The notes under the pieces are model-generated. The model was not told where the DNA came from and ran no database searches. It worked only from the letters and a program-made list of their open reading frames with translations. This document shows, piece after piece, positions 4,723 through 31,583 of a stretch of DNA of 32,000 bases (the first letter of the stretch is position 1; each line of letters begins with the position of its first letter). Made by a program: the position numbers and the translations under genes. The DNA comes from Microcystis aeruginosa NIES-843. Its GTDB lineage: Bacteria > Cyanobacteriota > Cyanobacteriia > Cyanobacteriales > Microcystaceae. The DNA lies in contig NC_010296.1 in assembly GCF_000010625.1 (NCBI RefSeq), forward strand, positions 1,320,001 to 1,352,000, given 5' to 3'.

Positions 4723-5997
4723 CTGACAGGGGGACAAGCAAGCTGAAAAGCTTATGTAGCATAAAATACAGACACAGACTCCAAAAAAAGATAAGTCATA
4801 TTTACCATATATGACCTAAATAACGAAAATGATAAGTGAACTATACCAGAAAGTGTTAGAAAATGAACTGGGACGAGCCAGATATCTACTGTTGTTAATG
4901 ATAGTTGGAACCTTGCAAATACTAAAGCAAGCTAAGTTAGAGATATTAGCTGAAGCCTTACCAATACCAATCCTGTTTGAGAGTCGGAGAAAAAAACTAA
5001 AAAGATTTTTAAAGCTGGAAATTCTGAATATTGAAAAAATCTGGTTTCCGGTCCTAAAAGAGATGTTAAAACAGCAGCAGAGATTCACAACAAAAGGATT
5101 AGCGTATATTGCTATAGACCGGACAAGTTGGGGAGCAATAAATATCTTGATGGTGAGTCTAATTTATGACAAGAGAGCCATGCCAATCTATTGGGAGATA
5201 TTAGATAAAAAAGGAAGTAGTAATCTCGAAGAACAGCAGCGAGTATTAGAAAAAACATTGACCGTGCTATCAGGTCATAAAATAGTGGTGTTAGGAGATA
5301 GAGAATTTTGCTCGGTCAGTCTTGGAAAGTGGCTTCAGAAGCAGAGTTTATACTTTTGCTTAAGACAAAAAAAAAGTACAAATGTCAAGACAAAAGAAGG
5401 AATTTATCAAGAAATGAGAGCCTTAGGTTTAAGTCCAGGAACTAAACTATTTTTAAATGATGTTAATATTACAAAAGAGAAGGGATTTGGCGAGTTTAAC
5501 TTAGCGGGTAAGTGGAAAAAAACTTATCGGGGTTTTCCAACAAAAGAGCCTTGGTATATTCTGACTAACTTTGGAGATTTAGAGACGGCAATAATGGCCT
5601 ATCAAAAAAGATTTGATATTGAGGAGATGTTCCGAGATTTTAAGTCGGGAGGCTATAGCTTAGAAGGTTCTCAATTAGCACCGAAATACCTATCAAAGCT
5701 GATAATTGTTATAGCTATCGCCTATACAAGTGCCACACTACAAGGTAAAAAAATTAAGGATATGGGAATCCAAAAATATGTTACAAGACCTGAAAAAAGA
5801 TATAAACGTCAACGCAGACACAGCAGTTTTTATGTGGGTCAACATCTCTATCATTGGCTCCAGCTACATCAAATGTTCCCAAAAAATATAGAAGAGCTAA
5901 TGCAAATTAGCCGCTATCGGTTGAAGGATTACATCAAAGGACAAAGAGCGATATCGCTTGCCCTATCTACCTTCTAGCTCGCTTGTCCCCCTCTCAG
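4723..5997 (+). mobile_element. Intact IS4-family insertion sequence (1275 bp) with 22-bp terminal inverted repeats and an 8-bp target-site duplication
   Basis: IRL is ctgacagggggacaagcaagct (4723-4744). IRR is agctcgcttgtccccctctcag (5976-5997). They are reverse complements with 2 mismatches. The flanking direct repeat ctgtcgca occurs at 4715-4722 and 5998-6005. Confidence 0.9.
4829..5977 (+). CDS. IS4-family DDE transposase
   Basis: 382-aa ORF. DDE candidates are IAIDRTSW, VVLGDREF and the E in DIEEMFRDFK. The sequence YQKRFDIEEMFRDFK fits the IS4 Y-x2-R-x3-E-x6-K signature. The stop codon lies inside IRR. Confidence 0.9.
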   Translation: MISELYQKVLENELGRARYLLLLMIVGTLQILKQAKLEILAEALPIPILFESRRKKLKRFLKLEILNIEKIWFPVLKEMLKQQQRFTTKGLAYIAIDRTSWGAINILMVSLIYDKRAMPIYWEILDKKGSSNLEEQQRVLEKTLTVLSGHKIVVLGDREFCSVSLGKWLQKQSLYFCLRQKKSTNVKTKEGIYQEMRALGLSPGTKLFLNDVNITKEKGFGEFNLAGKWKKTYRGFPTKEPWYILTNFGDLETAIMAYQKRFDIEEMFRDFKSGGYSLEGSQLAPKYLSKLIIVIAIAYTSATLQGKKIKDMGIQKYVTRPEKRYKRQRRHSSFYVGQHLYHWLQLHQMFPKNIEELMQISRYRLKDYIKGQRAISLALSTF

Positions 5998-14023: not shown

Positions 14024-14764
14024 TTAAACCGTTGCCGCCGATGAATCAAGCACCACCTGTTCATTGGTGGGTAACTCCAGACAATAACCCGCACCGTAAA
14101 CGGTTTTAATATAGCGAGGATGACGGGGATCGGGTTCTAGTTTCGTTCTCAGATGGCGAATATGAACGCGAATAGTCTCGATATCATCATCGGGATCGTA
14201 TCCCCAGACCTCCTTGAGAATATCACTAGGGGAAACGGTTTGACCGTGACGTTGGAGAAGACAGTGGAGTAACTCGAATTCTAGATGGGTTAACTTGACC
14301 ACACTTTCAAACCAGACCGCCTCAAAACGTTCGGGAACCAGGGTTAAAGGTCCAAAACTGAGTATTTCTGAGTGTTTAGCGGCTTGGGGAATGCGATCGG
14401 TGCGTCTGAGGAGAGCGCGTACCCTAGCTAACATTTCCTCCACCTCGAAAGGTTTGGTCAGGTAATCATCAGCACCCGCATTAAAACCTTCCACTTTATC
14501 TTGGGTTTGTCCTAAGGCTGTGAGCATCAAAATCGGGATGTCGGACGTGCGTTCATCTCGTCGCAAACGCTGACAGACAGTAAAACCATCGACTTTGGGC
14601 AGCATTAAATCCAGCATGATTAAATCGGGTTGTAACTGGACGGCCAAGGCCTGGCCTTTAATCCCGTCCTCTGCGGGATTAACGTCATAACCCGCCATCT
14701 CCAGGTTGATGGAGACTAATTCCGCGATTGCAGGATCATCATCGATTACAAGTATTCGGGGCAT
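14024..14764 (-). CDS. rpaA: OmpR-family two-component response regulator, RpaA-type (circadian/redox output regulator)
   Basis: 246-aa ORF. It has a receiver domain ([10 protein letters not shown], phospho-acceptor context LIMLDLMLP, and LTA/K motifs) plus a winged-helix domain ([19 protein letters not shown]). The N-terminal sequence closely resembles my recollection of cyanobacterial RpaA. Confidence 0.8.
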
Positions 14765-15274
14765 TACCAGAGTGTTATGACTAAGGGTTTGGGTAGGGGG
14801 TTGCTAAATGTGTTCTCGCTGACATCGCAACTAGGGCTTTGTCTCTCAAGGGCTTGAGTTTAGCACAACATAAAGAATCCTGTACTGATTATAAGCATGA
14901 TTGCTAAATTCGGTTTTAATTTGTGAAATTTTGCTGATATAAGTCTCCTGAATGTTAAGAATTTTTAAGAAGCGTGAAGAATGTTGCTCGATGATTGATA
15001 TTGGCGCTAGACTACACCCTCTCTCTCAACAAGATCAACTAGGGAGCAGTTTTTCACTAATCTTTACAATTGCGCCATCTCGATCGATACCGGTTTCAAC
15101 CGGCGGTCAAGTCCTGCTAGAGCTAACTTTTCTCCCTAAGCTCCCCCGGCGGCACTGTAAAAATTCTTAATAAAATTACCGATCGATTCAGTTTAATCTA
15201 CCAAAATAGACGGTTTTAGTAAGCATCTGTAACGAACCCGATCCATTCCACTCATCCCAACAGGTGATCATAAT

Positions 15275-18487: not shown

Positions 18488-20494
18488 ATGGTTGTCGCCT
18501 CCCAATCCCTCGAAGAACTTTGTATTAATGCGGTGCGTTTTTTAGCGGTGGATGCCGTAGAAAAAGCTAAATCGGGACACCCCGGACTGCCGATGGGGGC
18601 CGCACCCATGGCCTTTGTCCTCTGGGATCAATTCCTGCGTTTTAACCCGAAAAACCCCCAATGGGTCAATCGCGATCGTTTTGTTCTCTCCGCCGGTCAC
18701 GGTTGTATGCTGCAGTATGCTTTGATGTACCTGACCGGATACGATAGCGTCCCCCTAGAGGAAATTAAACAATTCCGGCAGTGGAAATCGAAAACCCCTG
18801 GCCACCCCGAAAATTTCGTCACGGAAGGGGTAGAAGTGACCACTGGTCCTCTGGGTCAAGGGATTGCTAATGGTGTCGGTTTGGCCCTAGCAGAAGCCCA
18901 TTTAGCGGCCCGTTTCAACAAGCCGGATGCCAAAATTATCGACCATTACACCTATGTGATTTTGGGTGATGGTTGCAATATGGAGGGTATTTCCGGGGAA
19001 GCTTGTTCTTTAGCCGGTCACTGGGGTTTAGGCAAGTTAATCGCTCTCTACGATGATAACCATATCTCGATCGATGGTTCCACCGATATCGCTTTCACCG
19101 AAGACGTGAGCAAGCGTTTTGAAGCCTACGGTTGGCACGTTCAGCACGTCGAGAATGGTAACACCGATTTAGATGCCATTGCCAATGCGATCGCAGCCGC
19201 CAAAGCTGTCACCGATAAACCCTCGATGATTAAAATCACCACCACCATCGGTTATGGTTCCCCCAATAAGTCTAATACCGCCGATGTTCACGGGGCAGCT
19301 TTGGGAGCAACAGAAATCGAGTTAACCCGAAAAGCATTAGGTTGGGAATACGAGCCGTTTGTGGTTCCCGATGAGGTGTTAAATCGTTTCCGGCAAGCAG
19401 TGGACAAGGGAGCGACGGCAGAAACGGACTGGAATAAGTTATTTAACGAATATCAGGCCAAATATCCCGCAGAAGCGGCTTTATTTGAACAGTTAACCAC
19501 CGGTCAACTGCCGGAAGGTTGGGAGCAAGCTTTACCGGTTTATAAACCCGAAGATAAGGCGCTCGCTAGTCGTAAACACTCGGAAATCTGCTTAAATGCG
19601 CTTGCGGGGGTTTTACCCGGTTTAATCGGTGGTTCGGCGGATTTAACCCACTCTAACTACACCGAATTAGAGCATTTTGGTAATTTCCAAAAAGGCAGTT
19701 ATCAGGAGCGTAACGTCCATTTTGGCGTGCGGGAACACGCGATGGGGGCGATTTGTAACGGGATTGCTCTCCATAACACGGGATTGATTCCCTACGGGGC
19801 GACTTTCCTGATTTTCACCGACTATATGCGGAATTCTATCCGTTTATCGGCATTGTCAGAAACCCGCGTCATCTGGGTAATGACTCACGATTCCATTGCC
19901 TTAGGGGAAGATGGACCGACTCACCAACCCGTGGAACACGTTGCTTCTCTGCGCGCTATTCCTAACCTCTTAGTCATGCGTCCGGGGGATGGTACGGAAA
20001 CTTCCGGTGCTTATAAAGTAGCGGTGAGCGAAACTAAGCGCCCGACGTTACTAGCATTATCCCGTCAAAATCTGCCCAATTTAGCGGGAACTTCCCTCGA
20101 TGGTGTGGCTAAAGGTGCTTATATTATCACCGATTCTGAAGGTACTCCCGATGTCATTCTCATCGGTACGGGTGGCGAGTTGTATCTCTGCGATAAAGCG
20201 GCTGCGGTGTTAAAAGAAGCAGGAATTAAAGCTCGCGTCGTTTCTATGCCCTGTTGGGAGCTATTCGAGGAACAATCGGCAGAATACAAAGAATCGGTAC
20301 TGCCGAAAGCAGTGAAAAAACGTCTCGCAGTGGAAGCGGGTTCAACCATGGGTTGGCATCGTTACATCACCGATGAGGGGGATGTGTTGGGGGTTGATAC
20401 CTTCGGCGCTTCTGCTCCAGGAGGTGTGATTCTAGAGAAGTTCGGTTTTACCGTGAATAACGTGGTAGCGAAGGCAAAAGCGTTGTTAGGTTAA
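18488..20494 (+). CDS. tkt: Transketolase
   Basis: 668-aa ORF. It contains SGHPG, the ThDP motif [10 protein letters not shown], and [16 protein letters not shown]. Its last 61 bp lie inside the 64-bp sequence repeated at 22650-22713. Confidence 0.93.
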
Positions 20495-20497
20495 TTA
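20434..20497 (+). repeat. Direct repeat copy 1 (64 bp): the functional tkt 3' end plus 3 bp
   Basis: agagaagttcggttttaccgtgAataacgtggtagcgaaggcaaaagcgttgttaggttaatta is identical to 22650-22713 except A20456 versus G22672. Confidence 0.95.
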
Positions 20498-20516
20498 CCT
20501 GAAATCTTAGCTGTAA

Positions 20517-20545
20517 TGAGTCAGAAAAATCTGGCTCATTTTTTT
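20517..20545 (+). terminator. Rho-independent terminator downstream of the current tkt stop
   Basis: Stem tgagtcag / ctggctca (one G-U pair), loop aaaaat, followed by a T7 run. Confidence 0.7.
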
Positions 20546-20558
20546 GTTTTTCTATTGT

Positions 20559-20584
20559 GACTGTCAGTCAGTGGACTAGGGGTC
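20559..20584 (+). promoter_or_regulatory. Putative C-box operator pair for the R-M controller protein
   Basis: GACTgtcAGTC (20559-20569), then the spacer agtg, then GACTagggGTC (20574-20584). This lies 24 bp upstream of the C-gene ATG. It matches the GACT-N3-AGTC C-box pattern known for C.PvuII-type controllers. Confidence 0.55.
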
Positions 20585-20607
20585 ACGTCAGGCAGTTTAA
20601 TCGAAGC

Positions 20608-20868
20608 ATGGCAAAGGACAATTTAGCTCAATTTGGCAGATGTTTACATAATGCTCGCATTCAAAAGGGTTTATCCCAAGAAAGGTTGGCCGAAGCGGCC
20701 AATTTGGATAGAACTTACATCAGTCTTCTTGAACGTGGTAAAAGGAATCCTTCTTTACTATGCTTGATTTCTTTATGTAGAGCATTAAACATAAGTCTTT
20801 CGGAGCTTTTTAACACTATGTCTATAAATTCCGATGTAAATACTGATGATGTCAGAAGATTTGATTAA
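20608..20868 (+). CDS. XRE-family helix-turn-helix controller (C) protein of the R-M system
   Basis: HTH core QERLAEAANLDRTYISLLERGKRNPSLLCLISLCRALNISLSELF. Its 3' end overlaps the REase start by 23 bp. The start is set at the first ATG, because the track GTG start at 20557 would lie inside the operator. Confidence 0.8.
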   Translation: MAKDNLAQFGRCLHNARIQKGLSQERLAEAANLDRTYISLLERGKRNPSLLCLISLCRALNISLSELFNTMSINSDVNTDDVRRFD

Positions 20869-21676
20869 ATTGCTTGAGCAGTTTTTGCATGATAACGAGC
20901 TTGAATGGGAATGGTTTGAAAAAATAGAAAGTTTTTGTAAGAGTTATAGTTTGAATATCAAATATATTACAGAAGTTCTCAATGATCCAAAAGTTATTCC
21001 TATGATTCGTGGCAAGTTTTTTGAGTTCACTGTACAAGATGAACTGTCAAAAATACTCGCAAATAATTATTTAGTTACTAATCCTCGCTTAAATCCTCAA
21101 GCTGGTTCTCACGATATAGATGTAGCTATTATCAATCAAAAAAACGCCAAAAAATACTCTGCTGAATGTAAGTTAGCCAAAAAAGGTAGTTTCCGTCTTC
21201 AGGGAGGTATCAGACCTTTTATTGAAGTCAAATGTATGAGATCAAGAACCTTAGGAGACAAAGCAGCAGAACAAAGGTCTAAATTGATAGGAATACCTTC
21301 AACAAGCCTAAATATTCACAAAGATCAATATATTGAAACAGATTTTGATTTAGTGATTACATCTCTTGCCAATGCTTTTTTTCAGACCAATTTAGAAACG
21401 GGACTATTTGTTTGGAAGCCCACACCAAAAGAGCAAATATTTTTAAGCAAAATTAATATTAATAATCAAGAAGAAGCCCTTTTAAAAATGTACGTTGCCA
21501 GAAGTAAAGATTTAACAGCAAATCAAACCAATAATATCAATTGTTCTCGCCAGAAATGCCACGATAACAACTGTAATTTCATCCCTAATTATCCCAAAAT
21601 TTTCTTTGATGTTAATACGGCTGAACCTCTACAACCATGGCTACCGATAGAAAAAATAGAGGATTTACTTGATTAA
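20846..21676 (+). CDS. Putative type II restriction endonuclease (PD-(D/E)XK fold)
   Basis: 276-aa AT-rich ORF co-transcribed with the C gene and convergent with the MTase. The candidate catalytic motif is SHDIDVAII...SAECKLAKK (D...E-x-K). No other family was recognised. Confidence 0.6.
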   Translation: MMSEDLIKLLEQFLHDNELEWEWFEKIESFCKSYSLNIKYITEVLNDPKVIPMIRGKFFEFTVQDELSKILANNYLVTNPRLNPQAGSHDIDVAIINQKNAKKYSAECKLAKKGSFRLQGGIRPFIEVKCMRSRTLGDKAAEQRSKLIGIPSTSLNIHKDQYIETDFDLVITSLANAFFQTNLETGLFVWKPTPKEQIFLSKININNQEEALLKMYVARSKDLTANQTNNINCSRQKCHDNNCNFIPNYPKIFFDVNTAEPLQPWLPIEKIEDLLD

Positions 21677-21685
21677 AATTAGGAA

Positions 21686-22579
21686 TCAAGATACATCGAA
21701 TAAACTTAATTGTAGAGGTGTAAATCTTGCAGGTTTCTGAAGATCATAATTAGCAATAAATACCTCCTTGCCCTTGCGTCTTTCACTCTGATAACCATGT
21801 TCTAATTTTAAACCATTTTTTTGATCATCAGTTCGATTAATAGTGTAATTCCATTCATTATCTTGTAAAGAAATACACCAATCATACATTTCTCTAATTT
21901 CGGAGCAATTATCATAAGTCAAAAGAAATTTAAATCGATGTTGATGTTTTTTCAACGTCTTACATAACCTTTCATGATCTTCTAGACTGAAGAAGCAGGA
22001 ATAGAATTTATTTTGATCTGCTTGAAAGTAAGGAGGATCGACAAATAAAAAGTAATCATCGGGTAATTGATTGATTAAATCTTCAAAATCTAAACAAGAT
22101 AAATTGACATTTTGCAGTTTTTCCGAAGTGGTTTTTAGGTGAGAAGGCCAGTTTTCAGGACGCATAGAATACTTATCACCATAGCCCCAATAACAATTTT
22201 CAAGTTTCATAATTCCTGAGTAGGAAGTTCTATTTAGATAATACCAACGCATGGCTCTTTCTAGGTCATTGGCTGGTTGAAATTCATTTTTATAATAATT
22301 GTGTAATTCTTTGGTAGCGTTTAGATCTTTTAATAATTCAATTAGACTATCAAGATGATCTTTGATATGTCGATAACAGTTCATTAATTCCTCATCTTTG
22401 TCATTGAGAATATTCTCTGCTACACTTTCCTTAGCAAAGAATATAGATGCTCCCCCCGCAAAGGGTTCACAATACTTATGGTGACTAGGAAGACAAGCTA
22501 AGATTAGCTTACGGGCATAAAATTTACCGCCAGGATAACGAAAAGGAGAATTACTAAGTTTTTTAGCGATTTTGGACAT
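21686..22579 (-). CDS. N6-adenine DNA methyltransferase, D12 class (Dam-like)
   Basis: 297-aa ORF. It contains FRYPGGKFY, the AdoMet motif CEPFAGGASIFF, and the catalytic motif VDPPYF, in the Dam-family order. Confidence 0.85.
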   Translation of the reverse strand: MSKIAKKLSNSPFRYPGGKFYARKLILACLPSHHKYCEPFAGGASIFFAKESVAENILNDKDEELMNCYRHIKDHLDSLIELLKDLNATKELHNYYKNEFQPANDLERAMRWYYLNRTSYSGIMKLENCYWGYGDKYSMRPENWPSHLKTTSEKLQNVNLSCLDFEDLINQLPDDYFLFVDPPYFQADQNKFYSCFFSLEDHERLCKTLKKHQHRFKFLLTYDNCSEIREMYDWCISLQDNEWNYTINRTDDQKNGLKLEHGYQSERRKGKEVFIANYDLQKPARFTPLQLSLFDVS

Positions 22580-22649
22580 TACCTTTGATTTTAGAGGCTT
22601 TTCTTTGAGATTATTTTAACAAAATTACGATATTTTATCTAGGAATGTC

Positions 22650-22713
22650 AGAGAAGTTCGGTTTTACCGTGGATAACGTGGTAGCGAAGGCAAAAGCGTT
22701 GTTAGGTTAATTA
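22650..22713 (+). repeat. Direct repeat copy 2 (64 bp): orphaned ancestral tkt 3' end (would encode ...[19 protein letters not shown])
   Basis: See copy 1. It is followed by its own terminator at 22736-22757. Confidence 0.95.
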
Positions 22714-22735
22714 AAACTTTGGTTTTGTGGAAAAA

Positions 22736-22757
22736 GCCCGCGCCAGCGGGTTTTTTT
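22736..22757 (+). terminator. Rho-independent terminator (probable ancestral tkt terminator)
   Basis: Stem cccgc / gcggg with loop gcca, preceded by an A5 run and followed by a T7 run. It lies 23 bp after the orphaned tkt stop. Confidence 0.7.
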
Positions 22758-22778
22758 GTGCTAGGATCTAACCCTATC

Positions 22779-23219
22779 GTGCAAAGGGTTGACTGGGTGA
22801 TTCCTTTTACAGACAGAGAACTACAAAAAGCATGGAGAGAAAATCAACGAGCGGCAAAGGTCAAAACCATAACTAACGCTCATCGTTTATTGCTATTTTA
22901 CTCCGTTGAATGTGGTCTCAAAGCGGTTTTACTGAAAAGACAAAGTAAAGATTGCACCGATTCTTGTCGAGAATTACTTGAAGTGCGGCATGATATAAAT
23001 AAGTTACTAGACAAACTAGCTGCGGGAGAAAAACTAAAACTTCCCTCACAATTAAGTATGAAACCTTTAAAAAATAATCAAGAGAGAGAGCTTTCTTCCG
23101 GTGAAATTAATCAAATGTGGCGATATGGGGGATGCTGTGAAAATATCAAGGATGGTGAATTAGAAAAAAAATTGTTAGATATATTAAGTTGGATTGCACA
23201 GGAGTTGCAGGGACTATGA
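22779..23219 (+). CDS. HEPN-like small protein (putative RNase effector). The start is uncertain: GTG at 22758, 22779 or 22797.
   Basis: There is no in-frame ATG near the 5' end. The track start at 22719 would run through the terminator. FYSVECGLKAVLLKRQ ... CRELLEVRHDINKLLDKL resembles the HEPN helix pattern, with an R-x6-H motif (R at 22968-22970, H at 22989-22991). The stop overlaps the next ATG (ATGA at 23216-23219). Confidence 0.6.
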   Translation: MQRVDWVIPFTDRELQKAWRENQRAAKVKTITNAHRLLLFYSVECGLKAVLLKRQSKDCTDSCRELLEVRHDINKLLDKLAAGEKLKLPSQLSMKPLKNNQERELSSGEINQMWRYGGCCENIKDGELEKKLLDILSWIAQELQGL

Positions 23220-25960
23220 GAAGACGGCCATTACTAACTTGGTTTGATATTAAAAGAAAAATTGCTCGCGAAACCGCTAACGGAAATGACTTACCTGATA
23301 GTATTGTTAAAATTAGTTGTTTTAGTAGTGCTTTAGAGATTGGTATTCAAAGTCAAAATGATCAACCAAAAGCTAACTCAATATTAAAAGAATGGTTCGG
23401 AGATTGGTATCAAGAATCAGAACAAATTATTCAGCTAGATATTGATAATGCTTCTATTCCTGTAGAATTTATTTTAATAGATAATAGTTCTTATTTTTCT
23501 CCATCGATTCGACCTTTTTGGCAGGAAGTCGCTTATTTAAAAGAAAATACAGATTCAGAGCAATCGGATAATTTTTTACCCAATGCTTATCAAGATAAGC
23601 CAGAAATTATTGCTTTTTATTCTTTTAAAGGTGGTGTGGGAAGAACCCTACATTTAGCCGCTTATATTCTTGCTCTCTTAGCAAGAGCAAAAGATATAAA
23701 TAAACCAATTAAAATTTTAGTTATTGACTCAGATTTAGAGGCTCCGGGGTTAACCTATTGGCAAAGGTATGAAAGTCAAGAGGCAACCGTATCTTTGAGC
23801 AATTTTTTAGAAGTTTATCAATATCCCAAGCCATCTCTAGAGGTGGCACTCTCTTGGGTAACTCAAGAAATTAAGAAAACTGCCAAACAGCAAAATAAAT
23901 CAACTTTATATTTTTTACCCGCTTTTATTGAAGAAGAAGAACTCTTAGATACTCCTATACTGCCAGAAAATTTAGCCAGAAATCCGTCGGGTGCTTGGGA
24001 GGTAGGGGATGCAATTCATCAATTAGGGCAAAAATTAGCAGTAGATTATATATTTATTGATTTAAGAGCAGGATTAAGTGAAATTTCTAGCCCAATTTTA
24101 TTTGACTCTAGAATCCAAAGATTTTTAGTAACAACAGTTAATGAGCAATCTTGGCGAGGTGTCAGGATGGTTTTAGAAAAAATTGGCTTACTAGCTCCCA
24201 GTGACTCAAAAGTAAAGGATGATAATTATTATGATCCTTCGATAATTATTAGTTTTTTAACCCCAGAAGTCAGAAATTTATCAGCATTTGAGAATATTTT
24301 AGAGCAATTACAGTCGGCTTATGTTCAACCCAAAAATGAGAGTTTATATACTACTAGACTGGATATTAAAGAAACTTATTTCGCCCAAGAGTTACTATAT
24401 GTTAACAATTGGGACGAAGCTCAAAACAAATTAAGTTCAACTTCCTTGATGGAACTGGCAAGACAATGGGCAGAAGATGAATTATCTAATAATAGCATTG
24501 CATCAGCCACACCTTCAGATAACTCCTTAGATGATGTGAAAAAACTCAGGGATACTTGCAATAAATATATTTATGCAGAAAAGGGAGAAGGGGAAGATTT
24601 ACTCATTACCGAGCCATTGAAAAATCTCGCTCGTAATTTTCAAGATAAACTACCTAATGTTATCTCAATTGGTGCTAAAGGTGCGGGAAAAACCTTTAAT
24701 TATATTCAGCTATCTCGCCTACAGTCTTGGGAAAATTTTTTAAATAAAGTTGATCCTCAAAATCAAGAAAATTCCCGAGAAAATCTCGGTTTAATATTTC
24801 CTTTACTGCAATCAAAAAATTTAGCAGAGGATGCCAAAGATATTCTTGAGCAAGCACGGCAAAATGTTAATAATTTTCTTAATAATGATTATCAATTTTC
24901 CTTCTCGGATTTAAGAGACAGAATCACGCAGTCGCTATCAAATCAGGATTGGAATGAGGTTGATTGGACAAATTTTTGGATCAAAGAAATTTCGAGAGTT
25001 TTAGGTTATAATCCTGAAAATTGTCAATTACATAAACTGCATGAATACCTTCAACAAAAAAACTCGAAGATTATATTTTTATTTGATGGATTAGAAGATG
25101 ATTTTCCTAATGTTGCCAATGATAAGGATAACCTTCAACGAAAAGCCTTGAAAGCTTTGATCGATCATTTACCCAATAAATTATCAGAAATTCGGCAATC
25201 TAATCTCGGCTTGATTGTCTTTCTGCGTCGAGATTTCTTGAGATATACAATCACACAAAACTCGCAACAATTTGAAAACTTATATCGTAATTATGATCTA
25301 TCTTGGAATCTAGAATCGTTTCTTAAACTTTCCTATTGGCTCTGCATACAATCATCGGTTATTAATGCTAACCCTCAAGATTTATTCGATTGTTCAATTG
25401 AAGATTTAAAAGGAAAACTAGAACGACTTTGGGGCAAAAAATTAGGAGCAGATAATGCAAGGGAAGCTAAGTCAGACAATTGGATTTTTGCCGCTTTAAC
25501 CGATTTTAATGGAAGACTACAAGCGCGGGATATTGTGAGATTTTTGTACCATGCTGCTAATATTACTGTAGAAAAAAAAGAAGAAATACAATTTACTAAA
25601 TGGTCGAATACTAGACTGTTACCTCCCCAAGCGATTCGACGAGCGCTTAAACCCTGTAGTGAAGAAAAAGTTGACGAGTCTAAGGAAGAATATCCTATAT
25701 TTAAAATCTGGGTACAAGAAAGGTTACATGAATATAGTGATAAAAAAATTCCTTTTTCTCTAGAACAGTTTAATCTGGATGCTACTACAGTCAATATTCT
25801 TGAGCAAATGGGAGTAATTTACGAGGACAAGGATAAAGAAGATGCAGTTCGTTATTATATGCCCGAAATATTCCGTGAAGGGTTAGGATTTTCTAGTCAA
25901 GGTGCGCGTCCTCGTGTTCTCGCTTTAAAGCGCAAAGTTTTGGGGAAATCAAATTTTTAA
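23216..25960 (+). CDS. 914-aa multidomain NTPase: unknown N-domain, then a ParA/MinD-like ATPase with KGGVGR-variant Walker A, then a second STAND-like P-loop NTPase module
   Basis: An AGGAG Shine-Dalgarno (23200-23204) precedes the ATG at 23216. Module 1 has FYSFKGGVGRT (23627-23647 = KGGVGRT), ILVIDSDLEAPG, and the Walker B-like DYIFIDLRAG. Module 2 has GAKGAGKT (24671-24694) and IIFLFDGLEDD (D at 25085-25087). The ~280-aa C-terminal region has no recognised motif. Confidence 0.8.
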   Translation: MRRRPLLTWFDIKRKIARETANGNDLPDSIVKISCFSSALEIGIQSQNDQPKANSILKEWFGDWYQESEQIIQLDIDNASIPVEFILIDNSSYFSPSIRPFWQEVAYLKENTDSEQSDNFLPNAYQDKPEIIAFYSFKGGVGRTLHLAAYILALLARAKDINKPIKILVIDSDLEAPGLTYWQRYESQEATVSLSNFLEVYQYPKPSLEVALSWVTQEIKKTAKQQNKSTLYFLPAFIEEEELLDTPILPENLARNPSGAWEVGDAIHQLGQKLAVDYIFIDLRAGLSEISSPILFDSRIQRFLVTTVNEQSWRGVRMVLEKIGLLAPSDSKVKDDNYYDPSIIISFLTPEVRNLSAFENILEQLQSAYVQPKNESLYTTRLDIKETYFAQELLYVNNWDEAQNKLSSTSLMELARQWAEDELSNNSIASATPSDNSLDDVKKLRDTCNKYIYAEKGEGEDLLITEPLKNLARNFQDKLPNVISIGAKGAGKTFNYIQLSRLQSWENFLNKVDPQNQENSRENLGLIFPLLQSKNLAEDAKDILEQARQNVNNFLNNDYQFSFSDLRDRITQSLSNQDWNEVDWTNFWIKEISRVLGYNPENCQLHKLHEYLQQKNSKIIFLFDGLEDDFPNVANDKDNLQRKALKALIDHLPNKLSEIRQSNLGLIVFLRRDFLRYTITQNSQQFENLYRNYDLSWNLESFLKLSYWLCIQSSVINANPQDLFDCSIEDLKGKLERLWGKKLGADNAREAKSDNWIFAALTDFNGRLQARDIVRFLYHAANITVEKKEEIQFTKWSNTRLLPPQAIRRALKPCSEEKVDESKEEYPIFKIWVQERLHEYSDKKIPFSLEQFNLDATTVNILEQMGVIYEDKDKEDAVRYYMPEIFREGLGFSSQGARPRVLALKRKVLGKSNF

Positions 25961-25991: not shown

Positions 25992-26195
25992 TTGATTGTT
26001 GTCAGCTTTTCAAAACAGGATTTGCTATTACCCAGCATTGGGGAATTGATTCGTTCATCAAAAAAGCTACACTACTGGGATTCTTGTGTTTTTTTAGCTT
26101 TCCTGAAAAATGAAAAGGATAAAATTAATGATTGTATTTCTGTTCTCAAAGTAGCTGAAAATGGTCAGGTAATCTGTCACCGCCGCCTACTCTAG
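25992..26195 (+). pseudogene. Truncated N-terminal fragment of a PIN-domain (VapC-like) toxin gene
   Basis: KKLHYWDSCVFLAFLKNE...VLKVAENGQVI resembles the first ~45 residues of PIN toxins (the h-h-D-[ST]-x-V-h-h pattern with the first catalytic Asp). The frame then ends after CHRRLL. There is no ATG start and it abuts the tRNA 3' end. Confidence 0.35.
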
Positions 26196-30872: not shown

Positions 30873-31583
30873 TTATTCTTCTTCTAAACTTAATCCTAAC
30901 GCCTGTAAGCGTTCCGCTAGTCGATCCGCACGTTTCTTTTCTTTATCGGCACGTTTCTTTTCTTTATCGGCACGTTTCTTTTCTTTATCGGCACGTTTCT
31001 TTTCTTGACGCATTTGAGACTCTAACTCAACAGTTGTTAAAAATTTCTCTCCATCAGGACGATACAATTCTAAACTAGATTTATTCCAGATAAAACGCAC
31101 ACCTAAACGGGGACTTATCCAGTCATTGATGGGGATAATTTCTCTTAAAGTTTTTCCCTGTCTTTGCCATCCTTGTAAACGACAGCGCATCGGGTTATAT
31201 AAATAGTATTCTTCTACACTATATGTGTCATAAAACTCTAATTTTCGACTCATCTCTGCTTTTGTATTCTTCGGTGATAGAATTTCAAAAACCACTTGAG
31301 GAGCGATATTTTCTTCCTGCCATTGACGATAGGAACCCCTTCGTCCTTTGGGACGGCCAAAAGCTACAATCACATCGGGAGCAACCGGTGAAACCAAAGT
31401 AGAACGCAGAGGATACCAGAGTAAATCTCCGGCAATAAACACCTTAGGGTCATCGGCAAAGATAATCTCTAAATTCTCCTTAATTTTGACAATCCACTCA
31501 TATTGTTCGGTATTATCTGCCATCGGTTGACCATCGCTATCGGGGAAAAGAAGATCGTCGTCAATATCAAGATAACTAACCAT
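30873..31583 (-). CDS. Uma2-family (DUF820) PD-(D/E)XK endonuclease with a C-terminal KKRADKE heptad expansion
   Basis: 236-aa ORF. It contains PDSDGQPMADNT, VAPDVIVAFGRPKGRRGSY and VVFEILSPKNT, all typical of cyanobacterial Uma2 proteins. The C-terminus reads EKKRADKEKKRADKEKKRADKEKKRAD. Confidence 0.85.
   Translation of the reverse strand: MVSYLDIDDDLLFPDSDGQPMADNTEQYEWIVKIKENLEIIFADDPKVFIAGDLLWYPLRSTLVSPVAPDVIVAFGRPKGRRGSYRQWQEENIAPQVVFEILSPKNTKAEMSRKLEFYDTYSVEEYYLYNPMRCRLQGWQRQGKTLREIIPINDWISPRLGVRFIWNKSSLELYRPDGEKFLTTVELESQMRQEKKRADKEKKRADKEKKRADKEKKRADRLAERLQALGLSLEEE
30928..31010. repeat. 21-bp tandem repeat (3 full copies and a truncated, divergent fourth) inside the Uma2 coding sequence
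   Basis: The unit gcacgtttcttttctttatcg occurs at 30928-30948, 30949-30969 and 30970-30990, with a truncated, divergent copy to 31010. It is in-frame and encodes KKRADKE repeats on the minus strand. Confidence 0.9.

Follow-up and report, generated by a model that had tools for sequence, protein, structure and literature searches.

Background

Insertion of restriction-modification (R-M) genes with long target duplication has been described by Nobusato et al. 2000 and by Furuta, Abe and Kobayashi 2010 (PMC2853133). The latter study noted that the repeats often span the stop codon, thereby sparing the target gene, and that the mechanism is not proven. Its listed cases include one from the comparison of Microcystis aeruginosa NIES-843 with PCC 7806, entered with an 88/88 bp repeat and an orphan methyltransferase (M) gene (supplementary Figure 7h). 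In this study, we report a complete Type II R-M unit, consisting of controller (C), restriction endonuclease (R) and M genes, which lies between two copies of a sequence of 64 nucleotides (nt) taken from the 3' end of the transketolase gene tkt in M. aeruginosa NIES-843. The DNA analysed, hereafter called the window, is the 32,000-nt stretch at positions 1,320,001 to 1,352,000 (forward strand) of contig NC_010296.1, assembly GCF_000010625.1, and coordinates are counted from its first letter. As it is listed in PMC2853133, the published Microcystis case differs from the 64-nt repeat and C-R-M unit reported here; it may or may not be the same locus. The present arrangement most probably arose by a single, integrase-free insertion of the C-R-M unit with long target duplication, followed by spread of the resulting polymorphism by homologous recombination.

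Operators (C-boxes) of the GACT-N3-AGTC type belong to C-protein-controlled Type II R-M systems of the PvuII, AhdI and Esp1396I kind. The unit described here resembles these systems in that R is preceded and overlapped by a small helix-turn-helix (HTH) C gene, in that M runs convergently from a promoter of its own, and in that a double palindromic operator, conserved among relatives, lies upstream of C. It is unlike them in that its R comes from a family without a Pfam or NCBIfam model or a solved structural relative.

The position after tkt also recalls the integrase-free defence-island hot spots found beside core genes, as it holds differing modules between strains. Those seen were the R-M unit, a KGGVGR-ATPase/PDC-M28-like pair, a 255-amino-acid (aa) gene with a PIN gene, and a GAF kinase. 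Unlike in such hot spots, one module here bears a copy of the core-gene end, and so has homology on both sides.

A further parallel is offered by the type VI secretion system (T6SS) effector-immunity arrays of Vibrio cholerae and by Rhs loci, where the sequential displacement of effectors, with immunity genes being kept, has been attributed to homology-facilitated illegitimate recombination (PMC5361080). The tkt locus shares with these and with the orphan tips of contact-dependent inhibition (CDI) systems (PMC5361080) a conserved upstream anchor, a toxic partner (here R) that is displaced and a protective M that is orphaned; as in T6SS and Rhs arrays, remnants of the anchor 3' end remain between modules. 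In contrast to those arrays, the anchor is a housekeeping metabolic gene outside the system, and the modules are unrelated defence or accessory units, not alleles of one family.

The repeat pair and the cassette at the tkt 3' end

The features of the locus, in window coordinates, are as follows.

18488-20494, plus strand: tkt, transketolase, 668 aa (Pfam Transketolase_N, Transket_pyr and Transketolase_C_1); the conserved target and anchor gene.
20434-20497, plus strand: upstream 64-mer, the functional tkt 3' end; its alleles track the host tkt, with 4 alleles among the strains.
20498-20556, plus strand: cassette-left spacer, which contains a terminator hairpin of the cassette itself (20515-20546), from terminator scan and fold.
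20557-20586, plus strand: C-box operator GTGACTGTCAGTCAGTGGACTAGGGGTCAC, two GACT-N3-RGTC half-palindromes, conserved in related cassettes.
20608-20868, plus strand: C (controller) gene, 86 aa (Pfam HTH_3, 1.2e-15; PADLOC Control_protein, 1.2e-16).
20846-21676, plus strand: R, Type II restriction endonuclease gene, 276 aa, intact (PADLOC REase_II PDLC03516, E 4.9e-68, full length).
21686-22579, minus strand: M, N6-adenine DNA methyltransferase gene of the D12/Dam family, 297 aa (PADLOC MTase_II, E 4.8e-81).
22580-22649, minus strand: M upstream region and right end of the cassette, promoter-like, with a -35 element at 22641 and a -10 element ending at 22613.
22650-22713, plus strand: downstream orphan tkt 3' end with the ancestral Asp codon, near-constant (C10/G23) across M-bearing loci.
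22714-22760, plus strand: ancestral terminator of tkt (hairpin 22731-22757); at every empty site it comes directly after the one 64-mer.

The upstream 64-mer is made up of the last 61 nt of tkt, stop codon included, and the letters TTA, and the downstream copy is 63/64 identical to it, with a sharp loss of identity at either end. The sole mismatch, A20456 versus G22672, distinguishes an AAT (Asn) codon from a GAT (Asp) codon. None of 100 dinucleotide-preserving shuffles yielded a comparable repeat match, and the window holds two copies of the 64-mer and no more. The insert between them (20498-22649, 2152 bp) is occupied by one intact Type II C-R-M unit, in which the C gene overlaps the start of R by 23 nt and M is convergent with R and has a promoter-like site of its own. 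Both hairpins fold, the one at 20515-20546 with -14 kcal/mol (z -4.1) and the one at 22731-22757 with -18.5 kcal/mol (z -2.4); the predicted terminator at the left end of the cassette is the one that now ends tkt transcription and shields C and R against read-through. The original prediction had described a 64-bp repeat with a single Asn/Asp mismatch, composed of the last 61 bp of tkt plus 3 bp, around 2152 bp with exactly one C-R-M unit, each copy having its own terminator. Alignment and translation (tkt ends at 20494), matches to Pfam, NCBIfam and PADLOC, and the folding of both hairpins agreed with it on each of these points.

The G+C content drops from 0.49 to approximately 0.32 at 20500, and the low-GC tract runs to approximately 26000 because a second, independent accessory module comes after the cassette. 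No integrase or transposase gene was present among the gene calls within 10 kb on either side of the cassette, and its best terminal inverted repeat (IR) scored no better than those of shuffled sequences, as the original prediction had also stated. No microhomology was found at the cassette junctions.

The left edge of the duplication bisects the palindrome TCTAGA (TCT/AGA, 20431-20436, centred on 20433/20434), and the right edge falls within TTAATTAA (22707-22714), a sequence confined to the empty-site and downstream context. The palindromes may lie at the edges by chance; they would matter if either were the recognition site of this or of another resident restriction enzyme.

Loci compared and empty sites

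Approximately 50 Microcystis loci (numbered with L) were gathered by exact-protein look-ups with acyl carrier protein (ACP), tkt and M, and by a metagenome scan with a 33-mer of the tkt end. The context of the 64-mer was checked in 24 metagenome stretches and 25 genome loci. A scan of genome contigs with the tkt C-terminus gave other cyanobacteria and no Microcystis among the 80 loci listed, an absence not to be read as biological, and the best listed match (81% identity) was a Microcystaceae metagenome-assembled genome (MAG). The gene order acpP-fabF-tkt was kept in every Microcystis locus compared.

Empty sites, in which tkt and a single 64-mer are followed by the sequence found in the window from 22714 onward, were identified in related strains (L086, L087, L093, L108, L109, L113-115, L123, L129 and L130). 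The simplest empty form reads tkt, 64-mer, terminator, Pkinase, GUN4, a 97-aa gene and CNNM. These sites run from tkt straight into the downstream terminator, as expected from the earlier proposal that the downstream copy is the orphaned gene end on its ancestral terminator. All two-copy loci have M between the copies, and there was no M-less locus with two copies. Each 64-mer either forms the genuine end of tkt or borders directly on the region upstream of M, and the sequence after it is either the terminator or the cassette's left end. The M upstream region and the downstream 64-mer always accompany M. Loci without R-M genes thus carry one 64-mer and not two, and the 64-mer was seen as a tkt end or next to M only and is not a dispersed element; both opposite outcomes had been named beforehand as evidence against an insertion.

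Among 22 informative metagenome contigs, 6 carried an intact cassette, 7 carried a truncated R with an orphan M, and 9 were without R-M genes. An identical M protein is recorded in 483 blocks of the collection; of the contexts listed, 10/10 were linked to tkt. The cassette was never seen at a second chromosomal site in the listed contexts of the M look-up or in the metagenome loci. One complete genome shows the two-copy structure, as do dozens of assemblies and metagenomes obtained independently, and the cassette was found with four different right-hand neighbours, namely the 146/914-aa module, the 255-aa gene with PIN, a 255-aa fragment, and Pkinase-GUN4.

These observations allow a comparison with the class as delimited in PMC2853133. 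R and M homologues are present in the insert, together with a C protein; the insert comprises 2152 bp and one 64-nt copy, where less than 20 kb is called for, and the flanking direct repeat of 64 nt exceeds the 30 bp set for the class. Related empty sites with a single copy align to both flanks (L093, L087, L108, L109, L123, L130 and others). There is no linked mobility gene, and the target is the 3' end of a protein gene and not a tRNA or att-type target. The repeat is not dispersed within the 32-kb window or the approximately 50 loci. As in the published class (PMC2853133), the insert is short and low in GC, the repeat spans the stop codon and the target gene is intact. Whereas the published cases were compared in pairs, the present data are on the scale of populations: carriers and empty sites number in the dozens, the cassette has several haplotypes, and identical cassettes occur in diverged backgrounds. 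The original prediction had recognised the footprint of long target duplication and had traced it to comparative Helicobacter genomics; the footprint stands, and the class is not confined to Helicobacter, as PMC2853133 lists a Microcystis case.

Origin of the insertion

In the most probable course of events, a 2152-bp cassette consisting of terminator, C-box, C, R and convergent M would have been inserted into the chromosome of a Microcystis ancestor, at a point in tkt 61 nt ahead of the stop codon. The insertion would have duplicated 64 nt of the target. The left of the two copies would keep tkt whole, and the right one would be without function, although it stays attached to the terminator that tkt had before the insertion. 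Neither an integrase nor a transposase nor a terminal IR would have taken part. The duplication step may have been brought about by staggered breaks with fill-in, by the union of two copies of the chromosome whose breaks lay 64 nt apart, or by one-sided homologous combined with illegitimate joining. After the insertion, the presence/absence polymorphism would have moved by ordinary homologous recombination. For this, tkt would offer the arm on the left; on the right, the 64-nt duplicate and the 47-nt terminator behind it would together form an arm that is portable to any downstream context.

Cassette haplotypes differ by no more than 1.9% and the junctions are identical in all carriers; this identity of the junctions points to one original insertion event, from which all carriers would descend. 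The codon at the mismatch encodes Asp or Glu in 30/30 outgroup cyanobacteria, so that the Asn codon at 20456 is the derived allele of the live tkt, and the orphan copy keeps the ancestral Asp. The single mismatch, judged from this comparison of sequences, is a derived change in the functional tkt and not a decay of the orphan copy. Both the Asn and the T10 alleles were found with and without the cassette, and the two copies are 64/64 identical in L096, L097 and L104. The cassette is an old, widespread presence/absence polymorphism of Microcystis and not a recent event in the window strain.

Spread of the cassette

In the unbiased locus set, nucleotide diversity (pi) was 0.0115 for the cassette versus 0.0270 for tkt. 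A six-fold lower diversity of the cassette than of tkt was rejected as inflated, since L096-L105 had been retrieved by exact M identity. Between L081 and L089, the latter of which was retrieved via ACP, 31/1946 sites differ in tkt and 0/2152 in the cassette. Carriers of the window haplotype show 0-3 nt differences over the whole cassette (C, R and non-coding), and up to 55-60 sites (at most 3%) differ in their tkt. The block of shared identity has its left end inside the upstream repeat (20443/20456) in 21/27 informative pairs and its right end 30-210 nt past the downstream repeat, with end points at 22744-22863. On that side, the backgrounds all share no homology other than the 64-mer with its 47-nt terminator. 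Near-identical cassettes in diverged tkt backgrounds, and next to four right-hand neighbours, argue for movement among genotypes by homologous recombination, and the cassette would therefore spread between Microcystis genotypes by such recombination bounded by the repeats. Recombination with a donor carrying tkt-linked R-M genes, which the original prediction had put forward as its alternative, is then the most likely source of the copy in this strain, the cassette itself going back to a single old insertion.

It is also possible, although we regard it as doubtful, that the duplicated tkt end is the working part of an integrase-free mobile unit, which would loop out as a circle, re-enter by RecA-type recombination and serially displace R, giving rise to orphan methyltransferases. 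Kobayashi's group is said to have proposed 'release and re-infection' steps in the R-M life cycle without evidence. If the mobile unit were real, it would have homology on both sides to every Microcystis chromosome and would supply these steps.

Related cassettes and predicted enzymes

The M protein matches Pfam MethyltransfD12 (3e-33) and NCBIfam TIGR00571 (122 bits, over the cut-off), and the motifs FAGGAS and DPPY are readable in its translation. The R protein gave no Pfam, NCBIfam or PDB sequence match. Its family is widespread, with 344 matches in cyanobacteria, Vibrio, Chloroflexota and others, and members are frequently annotated as fusions with an HTH gene. Residues D92, E107, K109 and C233/C238/C243 are invariant in 35 homologues, with an E107-x-K109 spacing. 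The AlphaFold (AF2) model of R has a confidence score (pLDDT) of 93, and its structural neighbours, all of them weak, are exclusively PD-(D/E)XK nucleases; a Foldseek search with the model gave no significant match. With its conserved residues, the match to the REase_II hidden Markov model and the structural model, R is a predicted endonuclease with a catalytic core, and the enzymes of the cassette are presumably active.

Related cassettes, with R proteins approximately 61% identical, were found in Merismopedia glauca (L106) and on a JGI contig (L107). They have the same C, R, M layout and are sited between unrelated housekeeping genes; taken with the fall in GC at the tkt end, this layout in unrelated contexts suggests that the cassette is of foreign character. 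The C-box is the sole non-coding stretch conserved with both relatives. The 59 nt to its left, terminator included, are not conserved in them, and no conservation was found upstream of M, where the right edge of the cassette was examined. No long flanking repeats were found around the Merismopedia and JGI-contig cassettes. Phage records contained no match to the cassette, and plasmid records contained only a distant match to the M gene on Acinetobacter plasmids.

Alternative explanations

Several points weigh against an old insertion with target duplication and later spread by recombination. The junctions hold no diagnostic trace of the duplication step, and none of the loci compared showed a donor version of the cassette lacking the downstream copy. 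No long repeats flank the relatives in other genera, so that duplication does not come with this R-M family as such. Ascertainment accounts for some of the low diversity of the cassette, L096-L105 having been chosen by M identity. The sharp edges of the shared block are equally expected from heterology-limited recombination with cassette-less partners, and are no proof of a circle. The polarity, with the empty site taken as ancestral, is derived from parsimony and from the foreign character of the cassette, there being no outgroup with the same flank; in the Microcystaceae MAG (L001), the outgroup flank is unrelated to either terminator.

The best of the competing explanations, which we still consider unlikely, is displacement of the gene end by homology-facilitated illegitimate recombination. 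A donor carrying tkt, its own terminator (20515-20546) and C-R-M would have recombined through a homologous crossover within tkt on the left and an illegitimate join on the right, 61 nt before the stop codon of the recipient, and the old tkt end would have been orphaned; the upstream copy would then be donor DNA and there would be no true target duplication. The non-conserved 59 nt on the left, with a terminator placed after the tkt stop, are as expected for the tkt terminator of a donor, and the cassette-left terminator may be a relic of the donor's tkt 3' flank. One-sided events have unmistakably taken place at the same locus (three R breakpoints, orphan M), and a comparable mechanism has been put forward to explain T6SS effector-immunity arrays and Rhs (PMC5361080). 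However, among the loci compared, there was no genome with tkt, the cassette-left terminator and C-R-M that lacked the downstream copy, and this terminator was never found after tkt without the cassette. The carriers have no donor-like divergent tract fixed in the 3' part of tkt, and the two copies are 64/64 identical in some strains, so that the donor would be Microcystis itself.

Far less probable is site-specific integration by a recombinase acting in trans. On this view, the 64-mer would be an att core, and the cassette either a passenger unable to move by itself or what is left of a larger element. The 3' ends of genes are frequent targets of integrative elements, which rebuild them from duplicated segments of 40-100 nt; PMC2853133 treats this as the main confounder. 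The near-constant downstream copy and variable upstream copy would fit such an event. However, no integrase and no tyrosine or serine recombinase was present within 10 kb in the window or in the approximately 50 related loci, the cassette measures just 2.2 kb, all of it taken up by C, R and M, and there was no phage match, only the distant plasmid match to M, and no second chromosomal site. Carriage of the R-M genes by an insertion sequence (IS) or transposon was considered and rejected, as there is no significant terminal IR and no transposase, and the duplication measures 64 nt rather than 2-15 bp. It can practically be dismissed that the repeat pair is due to chance, to a dispersed element or to faulty assembly, given the 0/100 shuffles, the presence of the structure in a complete genome as well as in assemblies made independently by the dozen, and the occurrence of copies in two contexts only.

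The tkt flank and the displacement of R

The second module next to the cassette is given below.

22779-25960, plus strand: second low-GC accessory module, a 146-aa gene overlapping the gene for a 914-aa protein, directly after the ancestral terminator.

The 914-aa protein has a KGGVGR-motif AAA ATPase domain (NCBIfam, 8e-47) and a Sll1717-family P-loop domain, and the module has PADLOC matches to the candidate defence system PDC-M28B/C. Its presence or absence is independent of the R-M cassette. In the empty-site strain L087, a DDE_3 transposase gene (IS) is inserted into the 146-aa gene (L087 14245-15288). A remnant at 26044-26173 in the window corresponds to the beginning (~128 nt) of a gene with a PIN domain, of which other strains have an intact form (L090 14590-15060); this indicates that the 146/914 module replaced an earlier 255-aa and PIN module.

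In other strains, C and the 5' portion of R have given way to modules that have the 64-mer and terminator in front of them, either the 146/914 pair or the 255-aa and PIN genes (L090, L092-094, L110, L111, L118-120, L127/128 and L131), with breakpoints at R nt 273, 428 and 485. This orphan-M form reads tkt, 64-mer, terminator, the 255-aa-PIN or 146/914 module, truncated R, M, 64-mer and terminator, and its direct repeat measures 111 nt (64-mer plus 47-nt terminator). Internal deletions of R were found in L082 and L103. The tkt flank is a hot spot, in which incoming modules have on repeated occasions ousted C together with the 5' portion of R and left an orphan M; R has been lost repeatedly, and M kept.

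In L096-L105, an intact cassette lies upstream of an R remnant, which indicates re-entry of the cassette at the same site. A second, partial R, approximately 97% identical, was observed past the neighbouring module in L096-L101, L103 and L104 (about 14326-14814, tkt-forward) and in L099/L105 (12508-12784). These partial copies span window positions 21118-21607 or 21330-21607 and occur in strains that also have the intact cassette. All second R remnants stop at R nt 762 (window 21607) and are followed by a different region (Peptidase_M48, TauE); the common stop indicates a genome rearrangement breakpoint inside the R remnant.

Two other genes of the window are unlinked to the cassette. These are the nearest transposase gene, DDE_Tnp_1 at 4829-5977 (plus strand), 14.5 kb upstream, and a Uma2-family (putative restriction endonuclease-like) gene at 30873-31583 (minus strand), close to the window end.

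Conclusions

The kind of element reported here is already known, and the locus reveals no new kind. What is new at this locus is the derived Asn allele of tkt, the spread of an old cassette within the bounds of its repeats, and a hot spot with serial displacement of R. The locus provides a population-scale example of an R-M system that settled beside an essential gene without a recombinase of its own and then circulated in a bloom-forming cyanobacterium. Empty, intact, R-deleted, R displaced by a module and re-invaded by an intact cassette are all states found at this one locus, and this range makes it a practical place for testing the excision and re-integration of repeat-flanked R-M systems and the origin of orphan methyltransferases.

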